Positions 4,578-18,724 are shown, numbered from the stretch's first letter. The stretch is DNA of 64,000 nt from an uncultured Candidatus Competibacteraceae bacterium (GCA_964624635.1 CAZUXM010000001.1:25307-89306); one strand, 5' to 3'. Notes: a model not told the origin generated them from the sequence alone. Made by a program: numbers and translations.

Positions 4578-6638
4578 CTACCACATAATACACCTTTTAT
4601 CCTCGGGGATAAACATTTTGTTTTTGTCGGTTACATTAAATGCTTTATAAAACTCCGGGAAGTTGGAAAGCACCATAATTACCCTGGCTTTAGGGGGTGA
4701 ATGTGGATCGGTATATAAACGTTGGATCACTTCATCTTTACGATAATGGGTTCTCCAGATCTGTGCAAAGTTGATAAAGAATCGTTGGTCAGCATTGAGT
4801 CCACCAATCATTTCATCTTTTTTATTGGCTGTGGCCTTTTTATAAGCCGTATAAGCAATGATCATTCCTCCAAGGTCAGCAATATTCTCACCAAGGGTTA
4901 ACTCTCCGTTTACGTGGATAGAATCGATGGCAACAAAACCGTTGTATTGCTCCACAAATCTTTTTGAAAGGTTAACGAAGTTTTCACGGTCCTTATCTGT
5001 CCACCAGTTGGTTAAATTACCGTTGGCATCAAACTGGCTTCCCTGGTCATCAAAACCATGGGTAAGTTCATGTCCTATTACCATACCTATACCACCGTAG
5101 TTAACGGCATCATCTGCATTCGCATCAAAGAAAGGAGGTTGTAAAATAGCCGCCGGGAAAACAATTTCATTCAATAACGGATTATAATAAGCATTAATAG
5201 TTTGTGGACCCATGCCCCATTCCGTACGATCAATAGGCTTTCCTAATTTGTTCAGGTTACGTTGAAAATCGAACGAAGTAGCCGCCATAACATTTAAAAC
5301 AAAATGTTGTTTTTTAATTCCTATCCCTTCGTAACTTCTCCATTTATCAGGGTAACCAATTTTTACCATGATTTTTTGCAATTTTTCCTGCGCTTTTTGT
5401 TTGGTAGAATCTCCCATCCAGGTCAATCCTTTAATTCTTTCGCTTAAAGCATTGCGTAAATTCTCTACTAACTCTAATGCTTTTTTCTTTGATTTTTCGT
5501 CAAATGCTACTTTTACATATTCCTGTCCTATTGCATCACGTAATAAATCATCCGATAAATAAGTAATACGTTTCCAGCGAGGTTCTTGTGTTTCTATTCC
5601 ACTGAGTTGTTTCTCGTAAAAGTCAAATGAAGCTTTTTCAAAATCAGCACTTAATTGAGAAGCAAAACTGTTGATTAAATGAAATTTTAAATAATCTTTC
5701 CAATTAGCAATATCTGTTTTCTTTAAAAGTCCGTTCCATGTTTTTAAGTATTCGGGCATACCTACTACTAAACTATCCATAGCAGGAGCACCTAACTCTT
5801 TAAAATAAAGATCCCAGTTAAAATTAGGTGATGCCTTTTTAAGATCAGCCATCCCCATTTTATTGTAAACTGCATATGGGTCACGTTGTTGAACCAATGT
5901 CATATGAGATTTGGCCAACTGCATTTCAATATCAAATACGTTTGATGCTTGTTTAGTAGCTGTTGCATCATCCGATCCGCTTAAAACAAAAATTTGCTTT
6001 ACATAAGCTTTATAGGCCTCTCTATCGGCTTTTGATTTATCATCATTTCTAAAATAATAATCACGGTCAGGCATTCCTAATCCTGATTGATATAAGAACC
6101 CAATATACTGGGTAGTATTTTTAAAATCCTGCTCAACAAAAAATCCAACCGGAGTTACACTTCCTGATTTTGATACTTTTCCATAGTAAGCAGATATCCC
6201 ATCTGTTGAGTTTAACCCGTCAATTTCACTCAATAATCCTTTTAAGGGCTCCAATCCGGCTTTATCAATTCCGGCAGAATCCATTCCGGAGGCATAAAAA
6301 TCACCAATGATTTGTGTATTACTACCTGCTTCAGCATTGGCTTTAGATGCTTTTTCCTGAATATCTTTGAGAATATTACTACTGGTTTCTTGTAAAATAG
6401 AAAACATTCCCCAACCATTTTTTGATGCAGGAATAGGATTTTGTTCTATCCATTTTTTATTTACATGTTCAAAAAAATCGTCTCCCGGAGCAATGGTTGA
6501 ATCCAATAAAGAAACATCAATAGCAGCTGATTTTTTATCCTTGTCATCTTTTGAATTGTTTTTCCCTTTACCACAAGAGGTAATCAATAAGGCTGATGTT
6601 ACAGAAATGGCTACGGAAGCAAGTAATTTAGTTCTCAT
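4578..6638 (-). CDS. M13 family zinc metallopeptidase (PepO/neprilysin-like) lipoprotein
   Basis: HELTHGF (HExxH) zinc motif, downstream GENIADLGG (ExxxD) motif, NAYY motif, lipobox LLITSC. The 686-aa length fits the family. Confidence 0.9.
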   Translation of the reverse strand: MRTKLLASVAISVTSALLITSCGKGKNNSKDDKDKKSAAIDVSLLDSTIAPGDDFFEHVNKKWIEQNPIPASKNGWGMFSILQETSSNILKDIQEKASKANAEAGSNTQIIGDFYASGMDSAGIDKAGLEPLKGLLSEIDGLNSTDGISAYYGKVSKSGSVTPVGFFVEQDFKNTTQYIGFLYQSGLGMPDRDYYFRNDDKSKADREAYKAYVKQIFVLSGSDDATATKQASNVFDIEMQLAKSHMTLVQQRDPYAVYNKMGMADLKKASPNFNWDLYFKELGAPAMDSLVVGMPEYLKTWNGLLKKTDIANWKDYLKFHLINSFASQLSADFEKASFDFYEKQLSGIETQEPRWKRITYLSDDLLRDAIGQEYVKVAFDEKSKKKALELVENLRNALSERIKGLTWMGDSTKQKAQEKLQKIMVKIGYPDKWRSYEGIGIKKQHFVLNVMAATSFDFQRNLNKLGKPIDRTEWGMGPQTINAYYNPLLNEIVFPAAILQPPFFDANADDAVNYGGIGMVIGHELTHGFDDQGSQFDANGNLTNWWTDKDRENFVNLSKRFVEQYNGFVAIDSIHVNGELTLGENIADLGGMIIAYTAYKKATANKKDEMIGGLNADQRFFINFAQIWRTHYRKDEVIQRLYTDPHSPPKARVIMVLSNFPEFYKAFNVTDKNKMFIPEDKRCIMW

Positions 6639-10228: not shown

Positions 10229-12406
10229 TTAGTTAAGAATTACTTTCATGTTCTTATTTCTTGACCCATCATTAATAATTAAAATATAGGATCCTCTATC
10301 AAAATCACTCACCCTAATACTAAAGCGGTCAATATTATTAAGCTCAATTGCTCCAGTCATCAATACTCTTCCTCTCATATCAGTGAATATAAAACTATAG
10401 TTATTCAAATTGGTTTGATCTTTAATATCTAACCATAATTCATCTACTGTAGGATTTGGATAAACCATTATATTTTCATCAGGGTGTTCTTCCGTATTAT
10501 CATAACAACCGTTTATTTCGGCCATAGTGGTAGCTGTTGAAATACAACCATTAGGACCTGTTACAGTAACAGAATACGTTCCATTATATATGGTTGGAGC
10601 ATCTACCAAAGTAGGGTTTTGAGAAGAAGAATTAAACCCGTTTGGTCCTGTCCAGCTATAAGTATTCCCTCCTGAAGCAGACAGTAATAAATCATCCATG
10701 GCACAAAGTGGACTGTTACTATTGATGATAACACTTGGTGCTGTATTAACTACCACATGGGTTACTACTGTTGATGAACATCCGGAAGCATTGGTAATGG
10801 TAACTGAATAAGCTCCACCATCACTGGTAGATGCACTTGGAATGATAGGATTTTGATGAGTAGATGTAAACCCTCCAGGGCCTGTCCACAAATGTTGAGC
10901 TAAACTATCGCTTGCAGATAATAGAATCGTGCTTCCTGAACATAATGGAGAATTATTCCATGCAAATGGAAAAGTAGGGATGTTTAATACTTCAACGGTT
11001 GCAGTATCATATAACACTCCACATCCCCATGGATCAATGTAGGTATAGGTTATTTGATGTATTCCAACTCCGGCTTCTAACGGAAAAAAATAATCTCCGC
11101 TAACTCCGGTGCCTGCAAATGTTCCACCGCTAGGATTTGCAAACAGATTTACTGTGTCTTTATTTAAACAATAAAAACTATCCAGGTTAAGAATCTTTGC
11201 TTCTAGTAAAGACAATTCAGCTGATATTATTGAAGTAACTGACGCAAAATAGCAGGTGGTATCTATATATGATCCTGTTCCTCCAAATATTCCGAAGGAA
11301 ACCGTACCATACATACCTCCTACTCCACCTGTATAATCAATATTCCCATTGATAGATGAATAGTTTTTGTAAAAAAACTTGACTCTACCACCACTACCAC
11401 CACCACCACCATCATGAGCTGCAGAATTTCCATCTCCGCCATCTCCACCTTTTACTGATAACAAAGCACCCGCCAATACATTTACATTTTCTCCTAAAAT
11501 AACTATGCTTCCCCCAGATCCACCACCTCCACACCTGCCGGTTAATCCTACACCTTCATTTCCCGACATGTCGATTTCACCACCAATATTTATCCACTCT
11601 GCTGATAGCTTAACAGCTCCGCCTCCATTACCCCCCGGTGCGTTATCCGTTGACCCCCCACTTGAACCTGTAAAAAATGTTTGATCATCTACGTTTCCAT
11701 ACATGGGTCCACCATTTCCGGGCATATCACCTAAATCATATCCACCAGCACCCCCAAATCCACCATATGACCCCCCTCCTGCACCTGATGTGATTGACAT
11801 TCCACCTCCACCCGGACCATTCCCAACATTTACAGTTAATGGTGCTTTATGTCCCATTCCCCTACCTTCAAATTTACCTCGGATAGAAATAGATCTGGCA
11901 TTAATTTCCAGTGGTTGATTTTGTTCTAAAAAAATTACGTCACCTGAATCCAATTGAAACCAATCATAATAAATAGATCCCGATAGAATTGTATCATGAC
12001 CTGACGAGATAAAGGCATTAGGAAATGTTGAATTAAAATCAGACAAAGTAGTGGATGTTGAATCACCATACCACATTAATATTTCTGTTGTACTGGAGCT
12101 ATTTAAAAAGGGAACTTTCACCCAAATTCTGGTTGAGTCAGTATTTAGTCCACTTTCAATCCAATAATCCATAAATATCGAAGGGGTACAAGTGATATTA
12201 GTAAATCTTATATCACCCCCATCAACCCTCATATGACCTTGTGTTATTGGATCAAGCGTATTTACATAAACCAACACCTGAAAGTCTGTTAATACCGAAC
12301 TGCTGTCATTATTAATTTGTACGGATGATTTAAATTGAGGAGCATACGATTGGGAAAATACCCAAACGGGGAAAAAAACAATGGCATGTAAAAAAAGTTT
12401 TTTCAT
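10229..12406 (-). CDS. T9SS type A cargo protein with DUF2341-like N-domain, glycine-rich beta-helix-like core and Ig-like repeats
   Basis: Signal peptide. DGGDIRF...WIES...TRIWVKVP resembles DUF2341. Long GGxGGxG tracts. Two ~80-aa repeats (W.GPNGF.S..QNP). C-terminal VYPNPT...I.V.N Por_Secre_tail-like domain. Confidence 0.8.
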   Translation of the reverse strand: MKKLFLHAIVFFPVWVFSQSYAPQFKSSVQINNDSSSVLTDFQVLVYVNTLDPITQGHMRVDGGDIRFTNITCTPSIFMDYWIESGLNTDSTRIWVKVPFLNSSSTTEILMWYGDSTSTTLSDFNSTFPNAFISSGHDTILSGSIYYDWFQLDSGDVIFLEQNQPLEINARSISIRGKFEGRGMGHKAPLTVNVGNGPGGGGMSITSGAGGGSYGGFGGAGGYDLGDMPGNGGPMYGNVDDQTFFTGSSGGSTDNAPGGNGGGAVKLSAEWINIGGEIDMSGNEGVGLTGRCGGGGSGGSIVILGENVNVLAGALLSVKGGDGGDGNSAAHDGGGGGSGGRVKFFYKNYSSINGNIDYTGGVGGMYGTVSFGIFGGTGSYIDTTCYFASVTSIISAELSLLEAKILNLDSFYCLNKDTVNLFANPSGGTFAGTGVSGDYFFPLEAGVGIHQITYTYIDPWGCGVLYDTATVEVLNIPTFPFAWNNSPLCSGSTILLSASDSLAQHLWTGPGGFTSTHQNPIIPSASTSDGGAYSVTITNASGCSSTVVTHVVVNTAPSVIINSNSPLCAMDDLLLSASGGNTYSWTGPNGFNSSSQNPTLVDAPTIYNGTYSVTVTGPNGCISTATTMAEINGCYDNTEEHPDENIMVYPNPTVDELWLDIKDQTNLNNYSFIFTDMRGRVLMTGAIELNNIDRFSIRVSDFDRGSYILIINDGSRNKNMKVILN

Positions 12407-12440
12407 GACAACGCTTTTGCTGTAGTAAATACACTTCTAA

Positions 12441-12448
12441 CAAATCTA
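12441..12448 (-). promoter_or_regulatory. -7 box TAGATTTG upstream of the glycine-rich T9SS cargo gene
   Basis: Exact TAnnTTTG on the minus strand, ~34 nt upstream of the ATG at 12406. Confidence 0.4.
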
Positions 12449-12822
12449 GAAAATAATACAGGTTTTAATATTAAAAAAACCTTGTTTTTATCTCCGGGCT
12501 AGTGCATATAATTTAGAGGACTCTTACACTAGTTGGGTTGCAACCGAAAAACAAATCTTTTTTTGTCTAACTCCTTATTTAACCTCCATTAAGCCAATAT
12601 AAGAACACAAGTATTTGATTTTTAATAAATTATAATTTTTACATTATATAAAACTTTAATAAGTGCTGATTTTGTTAATATGCATATATATTTATTAAAC
12701 TAAAAATTCACAGGATAATAATAAATAGTTATTATTCAATAATATAAGAATATAAATTATTATATATCTTATTTCAATACTATTAATTTTATCGATGAGG
12801 TTAAATATCCACTAAATCAAGA

Positions 12823-12830
12823 TACTTTTG
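12823..12830 (+). promoter_or_regulatory. -7 box TACTTTTG, 4 nt upstream of the KdsC-like ATG
   Basis: Exact TAnnTTTG. Shares the TTTGCAG context with the 9050 box. Confidence 0.45.
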
Positions 12831-12834
12831 CAGT

Positions 12835-13356
12835 ATGATGGGTTTTGAACATTTACCAAACGAATTATTGCAAAAAATAAGAAGGATAAAACTATTGGTT
12901 ACTGATTGTGATGGAGTTTTAACCGATAATGGGGTTTATTATGGAGAAAACGGCGAGTCTTTTAAAAGATTCTCCATAAGAGATGGGATGGGGGTTGAGA
13001 GACTAAGAGTTCATGCCAATGTTGAAACCTCTATTATGACGGGGGAAAACTCACAATCCGTTAGAAAAAGAGCCGAAAAACTTAAAATAAAATTATTGTA
13101 TCAAGATGTAAAGGATAAAAAGGCAAGATTAGAAGACGTATTATCTGATACCGGCCTTCAAAAAGAAGAGATTGCGTATATTGGAGACGATACTAATGAT
13201 GTGGAGATAATCAAAGAAATAGGATTTTCTGCCACTCCTGCTGACGGAATGATTTTTACAAAAGAAATAGTAGACTATATTTGCAAAGAAAAGGGAGGTT
13301 ATGGAGCTTTTAGAGAAGTAGCCGAACTCATTATATTTGCTAAAAAACATTTGTAA
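12835..13356 (+). CDS. KdsC-family HAD phosphatase (3-deoxy-ulosonate phosphate phosphatase type)
   Basis: LLVTDCDGVLTDNGVYY (DxDGV nucleophile motif) and IGDDTNDVE (motif IV). The 173-aa capless size is typical of KdsC / KDN-9-P phosphatases. Confidence 0.85.
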   Translation: MMGFEHLPNELLQKIRRIKLLVTDCDGVLTDNGVYYGENGESFKRFSIRDGMGVERLRVHANVETSIMTGENSQSVRKRAEKLKIKLLYQDVKDKKARLEDVLSDTGLQKEEIAYIGDDTNDVEIIKEIGFSATPADGMIFTKEIVDYICKEKGGYGAFREVAELIIFAKKHL

Positions 13357-13380
13357 ACAATAGGATTGAATATTTAAGGA

Positions 13381-14265
13381 ATGAGAAGAGTTGATACTAA
13401 AAATGGAAAGAATATTGGAGATGGATTTCCTACGTACATTATTGCAGAAATTGGAATTAATCACAACGGTTCTATTGAAATTGCAAAAAAATTAATTGAT
13501 GCTGCCATCAAGTCGGGCTGTGATGCCGTAAAATTTCAAAAAAGAACTCCGGAAATTTGCGTACCAAGAGACCAATGGGATAAAGAAAGAGAAACTCCTT
13601 GGGGTAAAATGAGCTATATTGACTATAAAAAGAAAATAGAGTTCAGTGAAGATGAATATGGTATCATTGATAAATATTGCAAACAAAAAGGGATTGACTG
13701 GTTTGCTTCCTGTTGGGATGAACCATCAGTAGATTTTATTGAACAATTTGACCCTGTTATTTATAAAATGGCTTCTGCTTCGTTAACCGATTTTCCTCTG
13801 TTAACCAAAGTAAAATCTACAGGGAAGCCCATTATCATTTCTACAGGAATGAGCACAATGGAAGAGATTGATATGGCTATTAAACATGTTGGTTTAGACA
13901 ACCTGCTTATAGCTCATTCCACTTCTGCTTACCCTTGTGTACCTAATGAACTTAACTTACGAATGATTGATACATTACGTAATTTATACCCTAATAATCC
14001 TATTGGGTATTCAGGTCATGAAACCGGATTAGCTACCACTGAAGCTACAGTAGCGCTGGGTTCTAACTTTATTGAACGTCATTTTACCCTTGATAGAGCC
14101 ATGTGGGGAACTGATCATGCCGCCTCTGTTGAACCGGAAGGAATGAGCAGACTGGTTAGAAATATTCGTGATATTGAGATTGCTTTAGGTGACGGGGTTA
14201 AAAAAGTATATGAAAGTGAAAAAGAACCTATCAAACGATTGAGAAGAGTTCATCTCACCAAATAA
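13381..14265 (+). CDS. NeuB-family PEP-condensing synthase (sialic acid/KDN-phosphate synthase-like) lacking the C-terminal SAF domain
   Basis: IIAEIGINHNGS...AVKFQ, ISTGMS, SGHE.G, ERHFTLD and DH.AS motifs of N-acetylneuraminate synthase family TIM barrels. At 294 aa the protein ends before where a SAF/antifreeze-like domain would lie. Confidence 0.85.
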   Translation: MRRVDTKNGKNIGDGFPTYIIAEIGINHNGSIEIAKKLIDAAIKSGCDAVKFQKRTPEICVPRDQWDKERETPWGKMSYIDYKKKIEFSEDEYGIIDKYCKQKGIDWFASCWDEPSVDFIEQFDPVIYKMASASLTDFPLLTKVKSTGKPIIISTGMSTMEEIDMAIKHVGLDNLLIAHSTSAYPCVPNELNLRMIDTLRNLYPNNPIGYSGHETGLATTEATVALGSNFIERHFTLDRAMWGTDHAASVEPEGMSRLVRNIRDIEIALGDGVKKVYESEKEPIKRLRRVHLTK

Positions 14266-15257
14266 TGTTAGAGTCAATCAGTAGTTTTTTTGCATCTATT
14301 AACTGGTCAAATCCGGCTACCATTTCTTTTTTAATCATTTGTGGGGCTGCTTTGTCGTTTGCCTTTATATGGGAAAGAATTTTCCCCTACCAAAAGGGAT
14401 TACCTCTATTCAGAAAAGGCTGGTATCTTGATTTTGTATGGTATACCATTATACAAAGTTTTATTATGGGTACCGTTATTTTTTCTTTTATTATCTATCC
14501 TGCAAGAGAAGCTTTAGGTCTATCAGATGATCAAGGTTTGTTATCACACTGGCCTCTTTGGGCATTGGTATTGTTCTTCTTTGTTACCCATGATTTTTAC
14601 ATTTATTGGTTTCACCGATGGCAACATTACAATCCGTATTTATGGCGAACCCACGAAGCACATCATAGTGTAGAACAAGTAGATTTTGCGGCAGGAAGCA
14701 GATCACATATGGTTGAAATACTCATTAATCAAACCATTGAATTTGCTCCTATTATTTTATTACTCGATGCCAAAACTGCTATCATAGTTCAAAGCATTAA
14801 AGTTACCATTGATGCTGTATATGGACAGTTTATCCATTCTAATGTAAATGCCCGATTAGGATGGTTTGGTTATATATTTAACGGTCCTCGTTTACACCAG
14901 TGGCATCATGGGGATGAATTAGAAGTATACCATGCTAATTTTGCTACTAAACTTTCGTTATGGGATTATTTATTTAAAACTGCTTACAATCCTGATCGTA
15001 AGCCTCGTAAATATGGAGTTTGGTATCGATTCCCTAAAGATTGGTTCACTCAACACATATTTTCCTTTGTACGGTTTAATGTAGGTAAACTTGAAAATTC
15101 AGTTCCTCTTAAATGGTATTTTAATGCTAGAGTAAACGCAATCAAATGTTTTTTTAAGCTATGGAAAATCATATTTAAGAGACGTTTAAATAAAAAACGT
15201 TTAATTGACGGAGAAATATATGCTCCTAAACCAGAATTAGTTGAAATAGATTATTAG
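14265..15257 (+). CDS. fatty acid hydroxylase / sterol desaturase superfamily membrane di-iron oxidase
   Basis: Multiple TM segments plus three histidine boxes (HRWQH, HEAHH, HQWHH). Start overlaps the stop of the NeuB-like gene by 1 nt. Confidence 0.8.
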   Translation: MLESISSFFASINWSNPATISFLIICGAALSFAFIWERIFPYQKGLPLFRKGWYLDFVWYTIIQSFIMGTVIFSFIIYPAREALGLSDDQGLLSHWPLWALVLFFFVTHDFYIYWFHRWQHYNPYLWRTHEAHHSVEQVDFAAGSRSHMVEILINQTIEFAPIILLLDAKTAIIVQSIKVTIDAVYGQFIHSNVNARLGWFGYIFNGPRLHQWHHGDELEVYHANFATKLSLWDYLFKTAYNPDRKPRKYGVWYRFPKDWFTQHIFSFVRFNVGKLENSVPLKWYFNARVNAIKCFFKLWKIIFKRRLNKKRLIDGEIYAPKPELVEIDY

Positions 15258-15629
15258 ATGACTATATCCTTTATTTATCTATTCATAGCGTCTGTTTTAC
15301 AACTGGGTTGGTTGTATAACATGAAAAGATTTAAAAAGGGAATATGGAAACGATTAAAAGCAAAACCATTTCAACTCCTCGATAAAATCAAAATATTATT
15401 ACCAATTATTTTATATCTCGTTTTTGGAATTTCTAATGTAGTATTTCTTACCTGGTCGATGCAAGATATTCCTCCATCCATTGCATATGCAATATGGACA
15501 GGATTAGTGCTGGCTGCTGCTACCGTGATAGATCAGATTCGTTCAAAAAAAAAGCTGCATTATACCAAGATCATTTTTATTATTATCATACTCATCGGTA
15601 TTGTTGGACTTAGATTAAGCACTTCATAA
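15258..15629 (+). CDS. SMR-family small membrane protein (pair member A, TM1 Glu replaced by Gln)
   Basis: 123 aa, 4 predicted TMs, SMR TM3 signature PPSIAYAIWTGL. Begins at the nucleotide after the upstream stop codon. Confidence 0.65.
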   Translation: MTISFIYLFIASVLQLGWLYNMKRFKKGIWKRLKAKPFQLLDKIKILLPIILYLVFGISNVVFLTWSMQDIPPSIAYAIWTGLVLAAATVIDQIRSKKKLHYTKIIFIIIILIGIVGLRLSTS

Positions 15630-15630
15630 T

Positions 15631-16011
15631 ATGCATTGGATATTTTTAATATTAGCAGCTGTATGTGAAATGCTTTGGTTTTATTGCATTGCTTACCTCA
15701 ACAAATACACTTTTAATGAGTTAATAAGTTTGAGTTTCCTTGAAGAACCAAATGGATGGTGGACCGTTGCTTCTATTGCCGGATATGCTATACTTGGAGT
15801 CGCTAATATGGTATTATTTGCCAAAGCCATTCAAAAAATTGTCCCATCTATAGCATTTGCCGTATGGACCGGACTGGCATTGGCAGGAATTACCTTATCT
15901 GACGGGCTGATAAGAAATATTCCGTTCTCGTGGACACAAATTACCAGTATATGTTTGATTATTTTAGGAGTAATTGGACTTAAGTTTCTATCGAAAAAAG
16001 AAGAGGCATAA
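15631..16011 (+). CDS. SMR-family small membrane protein (pair member B, TM1 Glu retained)
   Basis: 126 aa, 4 predicted TMs, signature VPSIAFAVWTGLALAG. Glu13 in TM1 (AAVCEMLW). 1-nt gap from partner A. Confidence 0.7.
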   Translation: MHWIFLILAAVCEMLWFYCIAYLNKYTFNELISLSFLEEPNGWWTVASIAGYAILGVANMVLFAKAIQKIVPSIAFAVWTGLALAGITLSDGLIRNIPFSWTQITSICLIILGVIGLKFLSKKEEA

Positions 16012-16013
16012 AT

Positions 16014-16571
16014 TTATACCGTCATGATTTCTTTTTCTTTTTTGGTAACATGATCATCTACCTTTATTTCAAAATCTTTGGTGAGATTTTGTATTACAGT
16101 TTCAGCATCTTTTGCAAGATCCTCTCCTAATCCGTCTTTCTGCAATTTTTTGATACTTTCATTGGCATTTTTACGAGCATTTCTGATACTTACTTTACAA
16201 TTTTCAGCTTCGTTCTTGGCCAACTTTACCATTTCCTTTCTACGTTCTTCTGTTAATGGTGGAACGTTAATACGAATCACTTCTCCATCGTTTTGTGGAT
16301 TTAATCCCAGGTTACTATTGATAATGGATCTTTCAATATCACCCAATTTATTTTTTTCCCATGGTTGAACAACAATGGTACGTGCATCCGGAGTATTAAT
16401 ATTGGCAATTTGATTAAGAGGGGTCATGGCTCCATAATAGTCAACCATAACGCTATCTAACATTGATGGATTTGCTTTACCGGTTCTAATCTTAACCAAT
16501 TCAACCTCTAAATGGTTAATAGCCTTATCCATCATTTCTTTGGTGCTCTTAATAACTGCTTCTGTACTCAT
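16014..16571 (-). CDS. frr: ribosome recycling factor
   Basis: 185 aa. The sequence (M.KA...L..EL..IRTG.A.P..LD.V.V.YYG..TPL.Q.A......R...V.PW) matches RRF throughout. Confidence 0.95.
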   Translation of the reverse strand: MSTEAVIKSTKEMMDKAINHLEVELVKIRTGKANPSMLDSVMVDYYGAMTPLNQIANINTPDARTIVVQPWEKNKLGDIERSIINSNLGLNPQNDGEVIRINVPPLTEERRKEMVKLAKNEAENCKVSIRNARKNANESIKKLQKDGLGEDLAKDAETVIQNLTKDFEIKVDDHVTKKEKEIMTV

Positions 16572-17513: not shown

Positions 17514-18128
17514 ATGAAAAGGTCATCTCAAAGAATTTTTTCTGCTATCCTTTTGTTATTTATGGTATTCGTAGGATCTAACCTTCATTCTCAAAGGTTA
17601 GGAAAGTGGGATAAAAGACAATGGAGAAAAAATATCATATGGCTCGAAGGGATGGGGGCTAGTGGTGTAGTAGGAGTTCATTATGAAAGGGTTTTTATGT
17701 TAGGAAGAGCATTTTCATTAAGAGCTGATGTTGGGGTCAGTCCCTTTTATGTATCTGACAGGTTTGAATTATATGCCGGCAAAAGTATGACTGCTATTGT
17801 TGGGGGTGGTTTTTACGCTTTCCCTAACGCATTTAAAATAGGAATAGGCTGTTCAATGTTAAATGATTTTTTCTTTGACCGCATTCCGGAAACCGTTCCC
17901 CCGGCTATCAATGATACTACCCATGGAGGAACTCCTATTGATGCTGTAGGTCCTAAAAATTATAAAGTTCGAATTATGCCTTATTTGGTACTAGAAGGTA
18001 CCATTGCCAACAGAGTAGTTGTAAGAGCCGGATACTCTCCAATTATCGATCCCGATAATGACCTTCAAACAGAAACCTCTTTTATGCATTGGGCTACTAT
18101 TAGTGTAGGTTATAAATTTGGCAAATAG
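17514..18128 (+). CDS. hypothetical secreted protein (possible small beta-barrel), paralogue 1
   Basis: Signal peptide. Shares GV.YER.F, glycine/aromatic-rich strands and a terminal aromatic-containing tail (GYKFGK) with the next gene. Confidence 0.6.
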   Translation: MKRSSQRIFSAILLLFMVFVGSNLHSQRLGKWDKRQWRKNIIWLEGMGASGVVGVHYERVFMLGRAFSLRADVGVSPFYVSDRFELYAGKSMTAIVGGGFYAFPNAFKIGIGCSMLNDFFFDRIPETVPPAINDTTHGGTPIDAVGPKNYKVRIMPYLVLEGTIANRVVVRAGYSPIIDPDNDLQTETSFMHWATISVGYKFGK

Positions 18129-18139
18129 TATTCCCATTA

Positions 18140-18724
18140 ATGCAGTCAAAACTCTTTTTTATCAGCTTTATATTTTTCGTACTTACTCTTACGCTTCATT
18201 CGCAAAATTCAATGCTCGATTCAACCAAACTTGACAAAGTAGGGAATAAAAAAAATGGATTTTTCTTTGAAGCAGCTGGATCAAGTTCACTCGCCGGAGT
18301 ATATTATGAACGATTTATCCCTATAAAAATTAAAGATAAACGTCCCATTCAAATCAGATTTCAGGGGGGATTTAGTCCGTTTACCTTTTTCAGATTCTCA
18401 TTTAGTGATGGAATATCCATCCCTGTTGGTGTTAATTTTATGTTCCTGCCCGGACGATTTAAATTAGGTGCTGGGATGATGTTTTTAAATAGTTTTTATT
18501 TTGCGCCCATTGAAGTGGAAGACCATGGCTTTAGCCCTACCAAAATTACTCAAACACAATATAAATTGTTTTTACAACCACAGGTAATATTTGAATACCA
18601 CATCAGCACTAAGTTTTTAATCAAAGCCACCTTCAATCCCACCTTTATGCCTGAGCCAAATGCCGGCGTGTTACAATATAGATTCATGCCTTGGGGAGGA
18701 TTAAGTGCCGGTTTAAAGTTTTAA
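18140..18724 (+). CDS. hypothetical secreted protein, paralogue 2
   Basis: Signal peptide. Alignable by eye to 17514..18128 (AGVYYERFI vs VGVHYERVF; ends SAGLKF vs VGYKFGK). Confidence 0.6.
   Translation: MQSKLFFISFIFFVLTLTLHSQNSMLDSTKLDKVGNKKNGFFFEAAGSSSLAGVYYERFIPIKIKDKRPIQIRFQGGFSPFTFFRFSFSDGISIPVGVNFMFLPGRFKLGAGMMFLNSFYFAPIEVEDHGFSPTKITQTQYKLFLQPQVIFEYHISTKFLIKATFNPTFMPEPNAGVLQYRFMPWGGLSAGLKF

Follow-up and report, generated by a model that had tools for sequence, protein, structure and literature searches.

The subject of this report is a block of five genes at positions 12835-16011 of a 64,000-nucleotide (nt) window, the whole stretch of DNA analysed here, which is deposited under the name of an uncultured Candidatus Competibacteraceae bacterium (GCA_964624635.1, CAZUXM010000001.1:25307-89306). 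In close succession the block encodes a HAD phosphatase, a NeuB-family synthase without a SAF domain, an integral-membrane di-iron hydroxylase of the FA_hydroxylase family (FAH) and two SMR transporter subunits, A and B. Our analyses show that this block is a conserved, tightly coupled unit across environmental Bacteroidota, and the combination of synthase and phosphatase with hydroxylase and SMR probably builds an undescribed molecule of the cell envelope. All the families involved are known ones, and for the synthase/phosphatase pair there is a characterised precedent; what appears to be new is the obligate coupling of that pair to an FA_hydroxylase and a distinct SMR clade, together with a 10-gene operon to which the block belongs in most lineages. 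We found no description of this gene combination or of the 10-gene operon in the published literature that was searched, and the first-pass annotation of this DNA, a reading made from the sequence, had likewise known of no characterised system of the kind. Research on nonulosonic acids has usually dealt with them as sugars by which pathogens mimic their hosts; in the present case, free-living Bacteroidota of soil, freshwater and marine habitats contribute thousands of sequences in which a NANS-like pathway is tied to a membrane oxygenase together with a proton-coupled SMR.

The five + strand reading frames lie exactly where the first-pass annotation had placed them, a Pfam profile search bears out the family it gave to each, and its junction lengths of 24, -1, 0 and 1 nt are reproduced. 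The phosphatase and synthase genes are separated by a gap of 24 nt, the synthase and hydroxylase genes overlap by 1 nt in the sequence TAATG, the hydroxylase stop codon abuts the start codon of SMR A (TAG/ATG, 0 nt) and a single nucleotide stands between SMR A and SMR B (TAA-T-ATG). Strand, minimal junctions and conserved order together predict that the five genes are co-transcribed.

Clustered at 90% identity, hydroxylase homologues fall into more than 3,000 groups, and 84 related loci were found starting from the hydroxylase, a one-genome-per-species scan with a hydroxylase alignment giving 80. In a scripted scan the genes for NeuB, FAH and SMR follow one another on the same strand and in the same order at 75 of the 84 loci, and all four families, an adjacent phosphatase included, are present at 59; the remaining nine include short contigs, an artefactual fusion (L026) and one locus that truly has no SMR gene (L008). 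Recurrence of one order in so many independently obtained loci is far beyond chance. Three homologous loci, with hydroxylase identities of 64%, 57% and 51%, keep the HAD-NeuB-FAH-SMR order in unrelated neighbourhoods. That the genes might not be syntenic in relatives, a possibility which the first-pass annotation had raised against its own proposal of a five-gene coupled unit, is not what neighbourhood analysis finds: flanks are unrelated, junctions overlap or are minimal, and it is because synteny is kept across related genomes that we treat the block as a unit.

Across loci the median junctions are 22 nt for HAD-NeuB, 77 nt for NeuB-FAH and -1 nt for FAH-SMR, the last measuring 10 nt or less at 60 of 77 loci. 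The phosphatase and synthase are a single reading frame, with a linker of ~10 residues, at six genome loci and ~15 metagenome loci (~21 in total). Median identities of distant loci to the window proteins are 69% for NeuB, 60% for HAD, 52% for FAH and 32% for SMR. Carriers occur among Flavobacteriales, Saprospirales (Lewinellaceae), Cytophagales (Hymenobacter, Arcicella, Flectobacillus, Spirosoma, Cyclobacteriaceae and Flammeovirgaceae), Chitinophagales (Taibaiella, Edaphocola and Puia) and Sphingobacteriales (Mucilaginibacter), that is, in at least four orders of Bacteroidota. Four metagenome-assembled genomes with proteobacterial labels, Candidatus Competibacteraceae and Janthinobacterium lividum, also carry a Bacteroidota-type block (L007, L043, L046 and L051); its nearest relatives are in Flavobacteriales or Hymenobacter, and these carriers are probably binning contaminants.

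The synthase has a complete NeuB domain (PF03102, 262.4 bits against a cutoff of 22.1, E 4.6e-78, profile positions 1-241 of 241) and no Pfam match to a SAF domain, in agreement with the first-pass description of an enzyme reduced to its TIM barrel. At 261.8 bits it misses the equivalog model of bacterial NeuB (TIGR03569, cutoff 399.65), having no SAF domain and a replacement of Glu134. Over the TIM barrel it shares 40% of its residues (214 bits) with human NANS (SIAS_HUMAN; the query sequence was an exact match to NP_061819.2), and 28-33% (108-140 bits) with NmNeuB, PseI, SpsE and the SAF-less 6ncs protein. Being closer to NANS than to these four bacterial structures, and having the loop after strand beta-2 in common with it, the enzyme is of the NANS type; the motifs in common with animal NANS are the KFQK...WGK loop itself, IGYSGHETG and W-G-S/T-DH-A/S-AS. 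It differs from animal NANS in having no C-terminal antifreeze-like/SAF domain, and in having Ser at the position of NmNeuB Glu134, where NANS has Asp. The substrates of NANS are N-acetylmannosamine 6-phosphate and mannose 6-phosphate.

Within the clade of this synthase the residues for metal and for phosphoenolpyruvate (PEP) are invariant, as are the positions matching NmNeuB Glu25, Lys53, Gln55, Lys129, His215, His236 and Asp247; the invariant catalytic residues are Glu23, Lys51, Lys129, His213, His234 and Asp245. An invariant signature sets the clade apart (KFQKRTP, R70-x-TPWG, W107, W112, ASLTD, SGHET, R239, K274 and R288) and includes extra basic residues at K54, R55, R70, R239, K274 and R288. 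These additional Lys and Arg, with the pairing or fusion to a phosphatase, lend indirect support to the use of a sugar 6-phosphate and the formation of a 9-phosphate product. In a published phylogeny SAF-less NeuBs are an uncharacterised environmental clade in which F112 is replaced by Trp (PMC8208679).

The phosphatase belongs to the KdsC/YrbI subfamily (TIGR01670, 146.7 bits, above the cutoff of 106.95) and its HAD catalytic aspartates D24, D26, D118, D119 and D122 are invariant, although it falls below both the KdsC equivalog (NF007019, 151.1 bits against 208) and that for phosphatases acting on the 9-phosphate of 2-keto-3-deoxynononic acid (KDN) (NF058599, 154.4 bits against 180). Its best solved relative in the PDB is BT1713 of Bacteroides thetaiotaomicron (3e81). 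In the alignment Glu71 and Lys82 of the window protein fall on Glu56 and Lys67 of BT1713, which were changed by mutation in PDB entries 4hgq and 4hgr, and the window pair is invariant in 62 of 62 orthologues, whereas KdsC structures (1j8d, 3n07) have Arg and Leu at these places, the Arg following the T-G of motif II. Hence the first-pass label of a KdsC-type enzyme holds at the level of the subfamily and not at that of the specificity residues, which are as in BT1713. A plain pathway to 3-deoxy-D-manno-octulosonic acid (Kdo), with the pair as an analogue of KdsA and KdsC, is rejected on these phosphatase markers together with the NANS-like synthase.

The same features favour the earlier suggestion of a two-step route through a phosphorylated intermediate, comparable to KDN synthesis in B. 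thetaiotaomicron. There the synthase BT1714 and phosphatase BT1713 convert PEP and a sugar 6-phosphate to a nonulosonic acid 9-phosphate and then to the free acid; the host phylum is Bacteroidota in both cases, and Glu56/Lys67 of BT1713 are kept here. The two systems differ in that B. thetaiotaomicron has a cytidine monophosphate (CMP)-KDN synthetase, BT1715, and the window has no CMP-synthetase, in that the genes lie in a capsule locus there and are tied to a membrane hydroxylase and SMR here, and in the score of the present phosphatase below the NF058599 cutoff (154 against 180). Judged by diagnostic residues, the NANS-like synthase is intact, and it is paired, or fused, with a KDN-9-phosphate-type phosphatase.

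The hydroxylase matches PF04116 with 93.8 bits (cutoff 31, E 1.5e-26). The three His boxes noted in the first-pass annotation, HRWQH, HEAHH and HQWHH, can be read in the translated gene, are invariant among relatives, and contribute to a total of twelve invariant His. An AF2 model (pLDDT 71) is a helical membrane bundle; a sequence search of the PDB gave no match, and a Foldseek search of the PDB with the model gave only Scs7p at E 2.4, which is uninformative. OlsE of Rhizobium tropici, the nearest curated relative, is of the same di-iron FA_hydroxylase superfamily, and positions 90-285 of the 293 in its profile are matched. OlsE acts on ornithine lipids, adding a hydroxyl group at C4 of the ornithine headgroup, so that its substrate is the polar head of a cationic or zwitterionic aminolipid, and has been reported to be widespread in Proteobacteria and Bacteroidetes (PMC12971839). 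It differs from the present enzyme in having no known linkage to sugar-acid genes or SMRs.

Both transporter subunits match PF00893 (cutoff 23.7), subunit A with 40.4 bits (E 4.4e-10) and subunit B with 33.8 bits (E 4.9e-8). The closest NCBIfam model is SugE (Gdx), whose equivalog cutoff of 126 is missed at 33.2 and 29.6 bits, and the best PDB match of subunit B is the guanidinium exporter Gdx-Clo (6wk5); the clade as a whole scores far below every curated SMR model. Subunit A has Gln in place of the central Glu, retains Tyr60 and Trp63 and has strongly basic loops 1 and 3, while subunit B retains the central Glu13 and Trp16 and has Phe at the Tyr-switch position. By a crude count of loop residues the Lys/Arg bias is -14 for subunit A and +1 for subunit B, and by the same crude count -7 to -9 against 0 to +3 for the paired SMRs of five related loci; opposite bias in adjacent SMR genes is the criterion for paired heterodimers (PMC9574504). 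Opposite charge bias, with Gln in A and Glu in B, indicates a putative antiparallel heterodimer bearing a single central Glu. The first-pass annotation had described a paired SMR; this is correct for the window, with its two genes of opposite bias, and a minority state for the system, most lineages having one gene. Among single-copy members E14, W17, N43 and W63 (EmrE numbering) are invariant in 69 of 69, the Tyr-switch position varies, and an insertion of ~18 residues in loop 1 is found in all members.

The same annotation had drawn an analogy to ArnE/ArnF, the flippase of undecaprenyl-phosphate-aminoarabinose, likewise a small SMR pair at the end of a sugar-modification operon, with a product there that carries an amine (PMC9574504). 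This analogy is weakened by the central Glu, invariant in all 69 single-copy members and kept in subunit B. Four SMR subtypes are distinguished, and of these the lipid flippases, the most divergent and the sole non-cationic subtype, usually have Asn at that position (PMC9574504). ArnE/F is therefore probably not the best fit and a cationic substrate, as in cation/H+ antiport, is likelier, and no ArnE/F model is among the NCBIfam matches of the SMR proteins. Gdx/SugE is the closest solved structure, with its central Glu, Trp16/17 and Trp62/63 kept here; the present proteins depart from it in an invariant Asn for Gdx Ser42, in Phe for Tyr59 in subunit B, in the loop-1 insertion and, in the window lineage, in the heterodimer with one Glu, subunit A having Gln where Gdx would be expected to have Glu in both protomers. 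The coding sequences show, then, that the di-iron membrane oxygenase is intact and that its gene is translationally coupled to that of an SMR which is Gdx-like and bears the central Glu.

Clustering of neighbouring genes revealed six further genes on the same strand directly upstream of the block at most loci, namely at 51 of the 59 genome loci with sufficient upstream sequence. With the block they make a 10-gene array: c6, a GT-B-like protein; a KdsB-like cytidylyltransferase (CTP_transf_3); a transketolase-like thiamine diphosphate (ThDP) enzyme split over two genes; a class-III (omega-type) aminotransferase similar to glutamate-semialdehyde aminomutase; an SDR resembling sugar-acid dehydrogenases (5-dehydrogenases); and then HAD, NeuB, FAH and one SMR. 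Families were assigned to the six on one Mucilaginibacter example, and L036:472-9389 exemplifies the array. A reciprocal metagenome scan that started from the unrelated c6 gene found the full 10-gene array at 22 of 26 long loci and recovered FAH and SMR at 21 of the 26; no conserved gene lies further upstream in these 26 loci. The c6 protein has weak matches to Epimerase_2, Glyphos_transf and TIGR04396, and its QEG and HP elements are invariant, ~121 residues apart. Motifs of the form D/E-D/E-G and HP bind CMP-Neu5Ac in otherwise unrelated bacterial sialyltransferases (PMC2169525), a resemblance that is suggestive only. In Puia (L061:1565-3238) a 557-amino-acid (aa) reading frame fuses CTP_transf_3 to the N-terminal transketolase-like subunit, and Flectobacillus has a reading frame of the same size at the equivalent position (L074:4858-6531); the Puia fusion is a hint of physical coupling between CMP activation and the ThDP step.

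A tblastn search found no homologue of the six extra genes in the 64-kb window. Loci with the six genes carry one SMR gene (51 genome and 21 metagenome loci), and the clade without them (the window, L001-L003 and L005-L007) carries two. The first-pass statement that the operon has no CMP enzyme or glycosyltransferase thus stands for the window and not for the system; since the six genes are common elsewhere, it is this lineage that is without a CMP-activating enzyme and a transferase next to the block, and it either has a pared-down version of the system or keeps the same genes elsewhere in its genome.

These components can be arranged in a composite pathway of four steps, conserved as a module across environmental Bacteroidota, which we put forward tentatively, judging its truth to be almost evenly balanced, with the first two steps much more secure than the last two. 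We strongly infer that the NANS-like synthase would join PEP to a common hexose 6-phosphate, and that the BT1713-like phosphatase would free the resulting sugar acid in the cytoplasm. Since the window lineage has no gene for a special sugar substrate, the acceptor should be a common metabolite, most simply mannose 6-phosphate, in which case the synthase would yield a 9-phosphate of the KDN type and the freed acid would be KDN. At the inner membrane the OlsE-like hydroxylase might then oxidise an embedded amphiphile, the target most plausibly being the headgroup region of a cationic or zwitterionic lipid that accepts the sugar acid or is processed with it. Finally, the proton-coupled, Gdx-like SMR would take a cation, be it an intermediate, the product or a by-product, through the inner membrane, acting in the window lineage as an antiparallel heterodimer whose gene is translationally coupled to that of the hydroxylase.

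In most lineages the SDR and class-III aminotransferase would in addition aminate the acid before its activation with CMP and its transfer by c6. In Shewanella, the oxidase KdnB and aminotransferase KdnA act on Kdo before CMP activation in the synthesis of Kdo8N, a sequence in which an acid is made, oxidised, transaminated, CMP-activated and transferred, as in the 10-gene operon; here, however, the two families are SDR and class-III aminotransferase, and the window lacks their genes. The end product is probably an undescribed envelope glycoconjugate or lipid with KDN or an amino-nonulosonic acid. A KDN-type sugar acid that is attached to a cationic membrane amphiphile, or processed together with one, is our best guess, and the lipid-linked or oxidatively tailored ulosonic acid put forward in the first-pass annotation is a possibility. 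In its most specific form, which we think unlikely, the proposal is of an unrecognised membrane molecule, a 'sialolipid' with KDN or an amino-nonulosonic acid on a hydroxylated cationic lipid headgroup, its lipid part created or tailored by the OlsE-like enzyme and the whole translocated by a new, Glu-keeping SMR subtype. Were this true, the transporter would define a fifth functional SMR class, and the molecule would be the first link between a sialic-acid-type sugar and an aminolipid. An analogy with the aminoglycosphingolipid of Chlorobium is speculative and carries no weight in this reading.

Several observations weigh against the composite pathway. All block proteins miss the equivalog cutoffs of NCBIfam, and the likeness of the hydroxylase to OlsE (NF052566), its only NCBIfam match, is remote (107.3 bits where 475 are required). 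Ser replaces the catalytic Glu134 of NmNeuB in 92% of the synthase clade, so that the chemistry or substrate may differ from that of NANS; in NeuB, residue 134 is located beside the expected 6-phosphate site (PMC8208679). Eight Hymenobacter loci have no adjacent phosphatase, and the Lewinellaceae locus L008 consists of HAD-NeuB-FAH only. Single-copy SMRs have a mean Lys/Arg bias of -4.6 by the crude count, which is odd for a dual-topology homodimer. An FAH-SMR fusion at L026 was dropped, its 67-aa linker reading as translated spacer and no fusion appearing in 26 further loci. In the window lineage none of the 64 kb encodes a CMP-transferase, glycosyltransferase or aminotransferase, so that nothing evident there would bring a free anionic sugar acid to the membrane hydroxylase and the cation-type transporter; nor does any experiment or published product tie a nonulosonic acid to an FA_hydroxylase or SMR.

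Part of the same evidence could be read as a soluble pathway, an alternative to which we give a low probability, in which the sugar acid would become a small cationic metabolite exported by the Gdx-like SMR, for example an amino-ulosonic acid, or an amino-polyol arising when the 2-keto acid is decarboxylated with ThDP and then transaminated. The hydroxylase would then tailor an amphipathic intermediate, or set the cation free through hydroxylation at a carbon adjacent to a heteroatom, a position also hydroxylated by alkylglycerol monooxygenase. A proton-coupling Glu and Gdx-type Trp, both kept by the SMR, are typical of small-cation/H+ antiport; the 10-gene operon has the class-III aminotransferase, the SDR like sugar-acid 5-dehydrogenases and the split ThDP enzyme; and SMR copy number and Glu count shift together with loss of the aminotransferase set. 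Yet the CMP-transferase and the GT-B protein with sialyltransferase-like motifs point to a glycoconjugate, all characterised FA_hydroxylase members have, to our knowledge, lipids or other hydrophobic compounds as substrates, and no aminotransferase lies near the block in the window lineage.

More doubtful still is a variant of the lipopolysaccharide (LPS) inner core or lipid A, in which a Kdo-like acid, or one replacing Kdo, would be made and the hydroxylase would modify acyl chains of lipid A or the core. Although the parallel with the Kdo pathway extends over a PEP-aldol synthase, a KdsC-family phosphatase, a KdsB-like CMP-transferase and a GT-B transferase, and the SDR and aminotransferase could mimic KdnB and KdnA, the phosphatase has KDN-9-phosphate-type markers and not those of KdsC, the synthase is NANS-like and not KdsA-like, the genes on either side of the block in the window are not LPS genes, and LPS assembly as known makes no use of an SMR that has a central Glu. 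The hydroxylases of lipid A and Kdo, LpxO and KdoO, belong to families other than FA_hydroxylase, which also counts against an LPS variant.

On the contig of one relative, a classical set of NeuB with SAF, CTP_transf_3 and a Wzx-type flippase lies 4 kb upstream of the block, so that a conventional nonulosonic-acid polysaccharide pathway can coexist with the module. That the block itself is an ordinary supply of KDN or sialic acid for capsule, exopolysaccharide or protein O-glycan, with a lipid hydroxylase and a guanidinium or quaternary ammonium exporter as unrelated neighbours, would agree with this contig and with the capsule-associated pair of NeuB and KDN-9-phosphate-type phosphatase in B. 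thetaiotaomicron (PMC6200933), but is improbable and largely excluded by the synteny data, given the NeuB-FAH-SMR adjacency in varied neighbourhoods with overlapping stop and start codons, the renewed finding of FAH and SMR in the scan centred on c6, an SMR clade with its own invariant signature (N43 and the 18-aa loop-1 insertion) far below curated models, and the finding of no conserved polysaccharide export or polymerase genes near the block.

The identity of the product would give a function to the uncharacterised environmental clade of SAF-less NeuBs and define the substrate of the new SMR clade; it may be among the 'unidentified aminolipids/glycolipids' routinely listed for these taxa. 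Because cultured type strains carry the operon, the question is directly testable by genetics, lipidomics and nonulosonic acid analysis; cultured carriers include Hymenobacter arizonensis, Mucilaginibacter dorajii, Arcicella rosea and Taibaiella koreensis.

Table 1. Features of the five-gene block and of its upstream spacer, in window coordinates.
Feature	Coordinates	Strand	Length	Basis
C0-type HAD phosphatase, KdsC/YrbI subfamily, with KDN-9-phosphate-phosphatase residues Glu71/Lys82	12835..13356	+	173 aa	TIGR01670; comparison with BT1713
SAF-less NeuB-family PEP-aldol synthase, NANS-like 9-phosphate-synthase type	13381..14265	+	294 aa	PF03102; NANS alignment
Integral-membrane di-iron hydroxylase/desaturase, FA_hydroxylase family (FAH)	14265..15257	+	330 aa	PF04116; OlsE as nearest curated relative
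SMR subunit A, Gln at central Glu position	15258..15629	+	123 aa	PF00893
SMR subunit B, Gdx-like, central Glu13 kept	15631..16011	+	126 aa	PF00893
Divergent AT-rich intergenic spacer, type IX secretion system (T9SS) cargo gene (- strand) to block	12407..12834	.	428 nt	composition
Candidate Bacteroidetes-type -7 box TAnnTTTG, here TACTTTTG	12823..12830	+		regular-expression scan; only one in spacer

The spacer upstream of the block (Table 1) is a probable promoter region, and the long AT-rich control region of the first-pass annotation is recognisable in its 428 nt, with a GC content of 23% against 35% for the window. Matches to the sigma-70 consensus are no commoner in it than in shuffled sequence, and a scan for terminators likewise showed no difference from shuffles. 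The -7 box TACTTTTG ends 4 nt upstream of the HAD start codon; motifs of the form TAnnTTTG occur at 0.72 per kb on the + strand, and ~0.3 would be expected in the spacer by chance. This box is a candidate promoter, and its distance of only 4 nt from the start codon implies that the messenger RNA would be near-leaderless or leaderless. Rfam searches found no family in the entire window, spacer included, at the gathering threshold, and none in the spacer at a relaxed threshold save a meaningless snoRNA match at E 0.16; a riboswitch or leader RNA of a known family is thereby rejected for the spacer, and these searches found no guanidine riboswitch.

Upstream of the block lie housekeeping genes for an M13 peptidase, aroA, aroB and proline dehydrogenase, as well as the T9SS cargo protein, and downstream in the window are frr and mazG. 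The stop codons of the last SMR gene and the convergent frr are 2 nt apart (window 16011-16014), a distance too short for an intrinsic terminator to fit in. A gene for an M13 peptidase recurs upstream of the block, being ~6 kb off in the window (4578-6638) and directly adjacent in a relative whose hydroxylase is 57% identical to that of the window (L003:1-2103); this may be simple lineage synteny. At the Lewinellaceae locus L008 (6314-10877) a CBS-pair protein follows FAH, and a UbiA-type prenyltransferase-like membrane protein is encoded on the opposite strand. The T9SS cargo protein (10229-12406, - strand) has 725 aa, with DUF2341, an Ig-like CHU_C-associated domain and Por_Secre_tail, and a Gly-rich stretch of its gene produces a local GC peak of 0.47-0.48 and a strong negative GC skew at ~11250-11999. 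Beyond the block, tandem + strand reading frames at 17514-18128 and 18140-18724 encode proteins of ~200 aa each, with signal-peptide-like N-termini and no match in Pfam; they look paralogous and are possibly small outer-membrane proteins.

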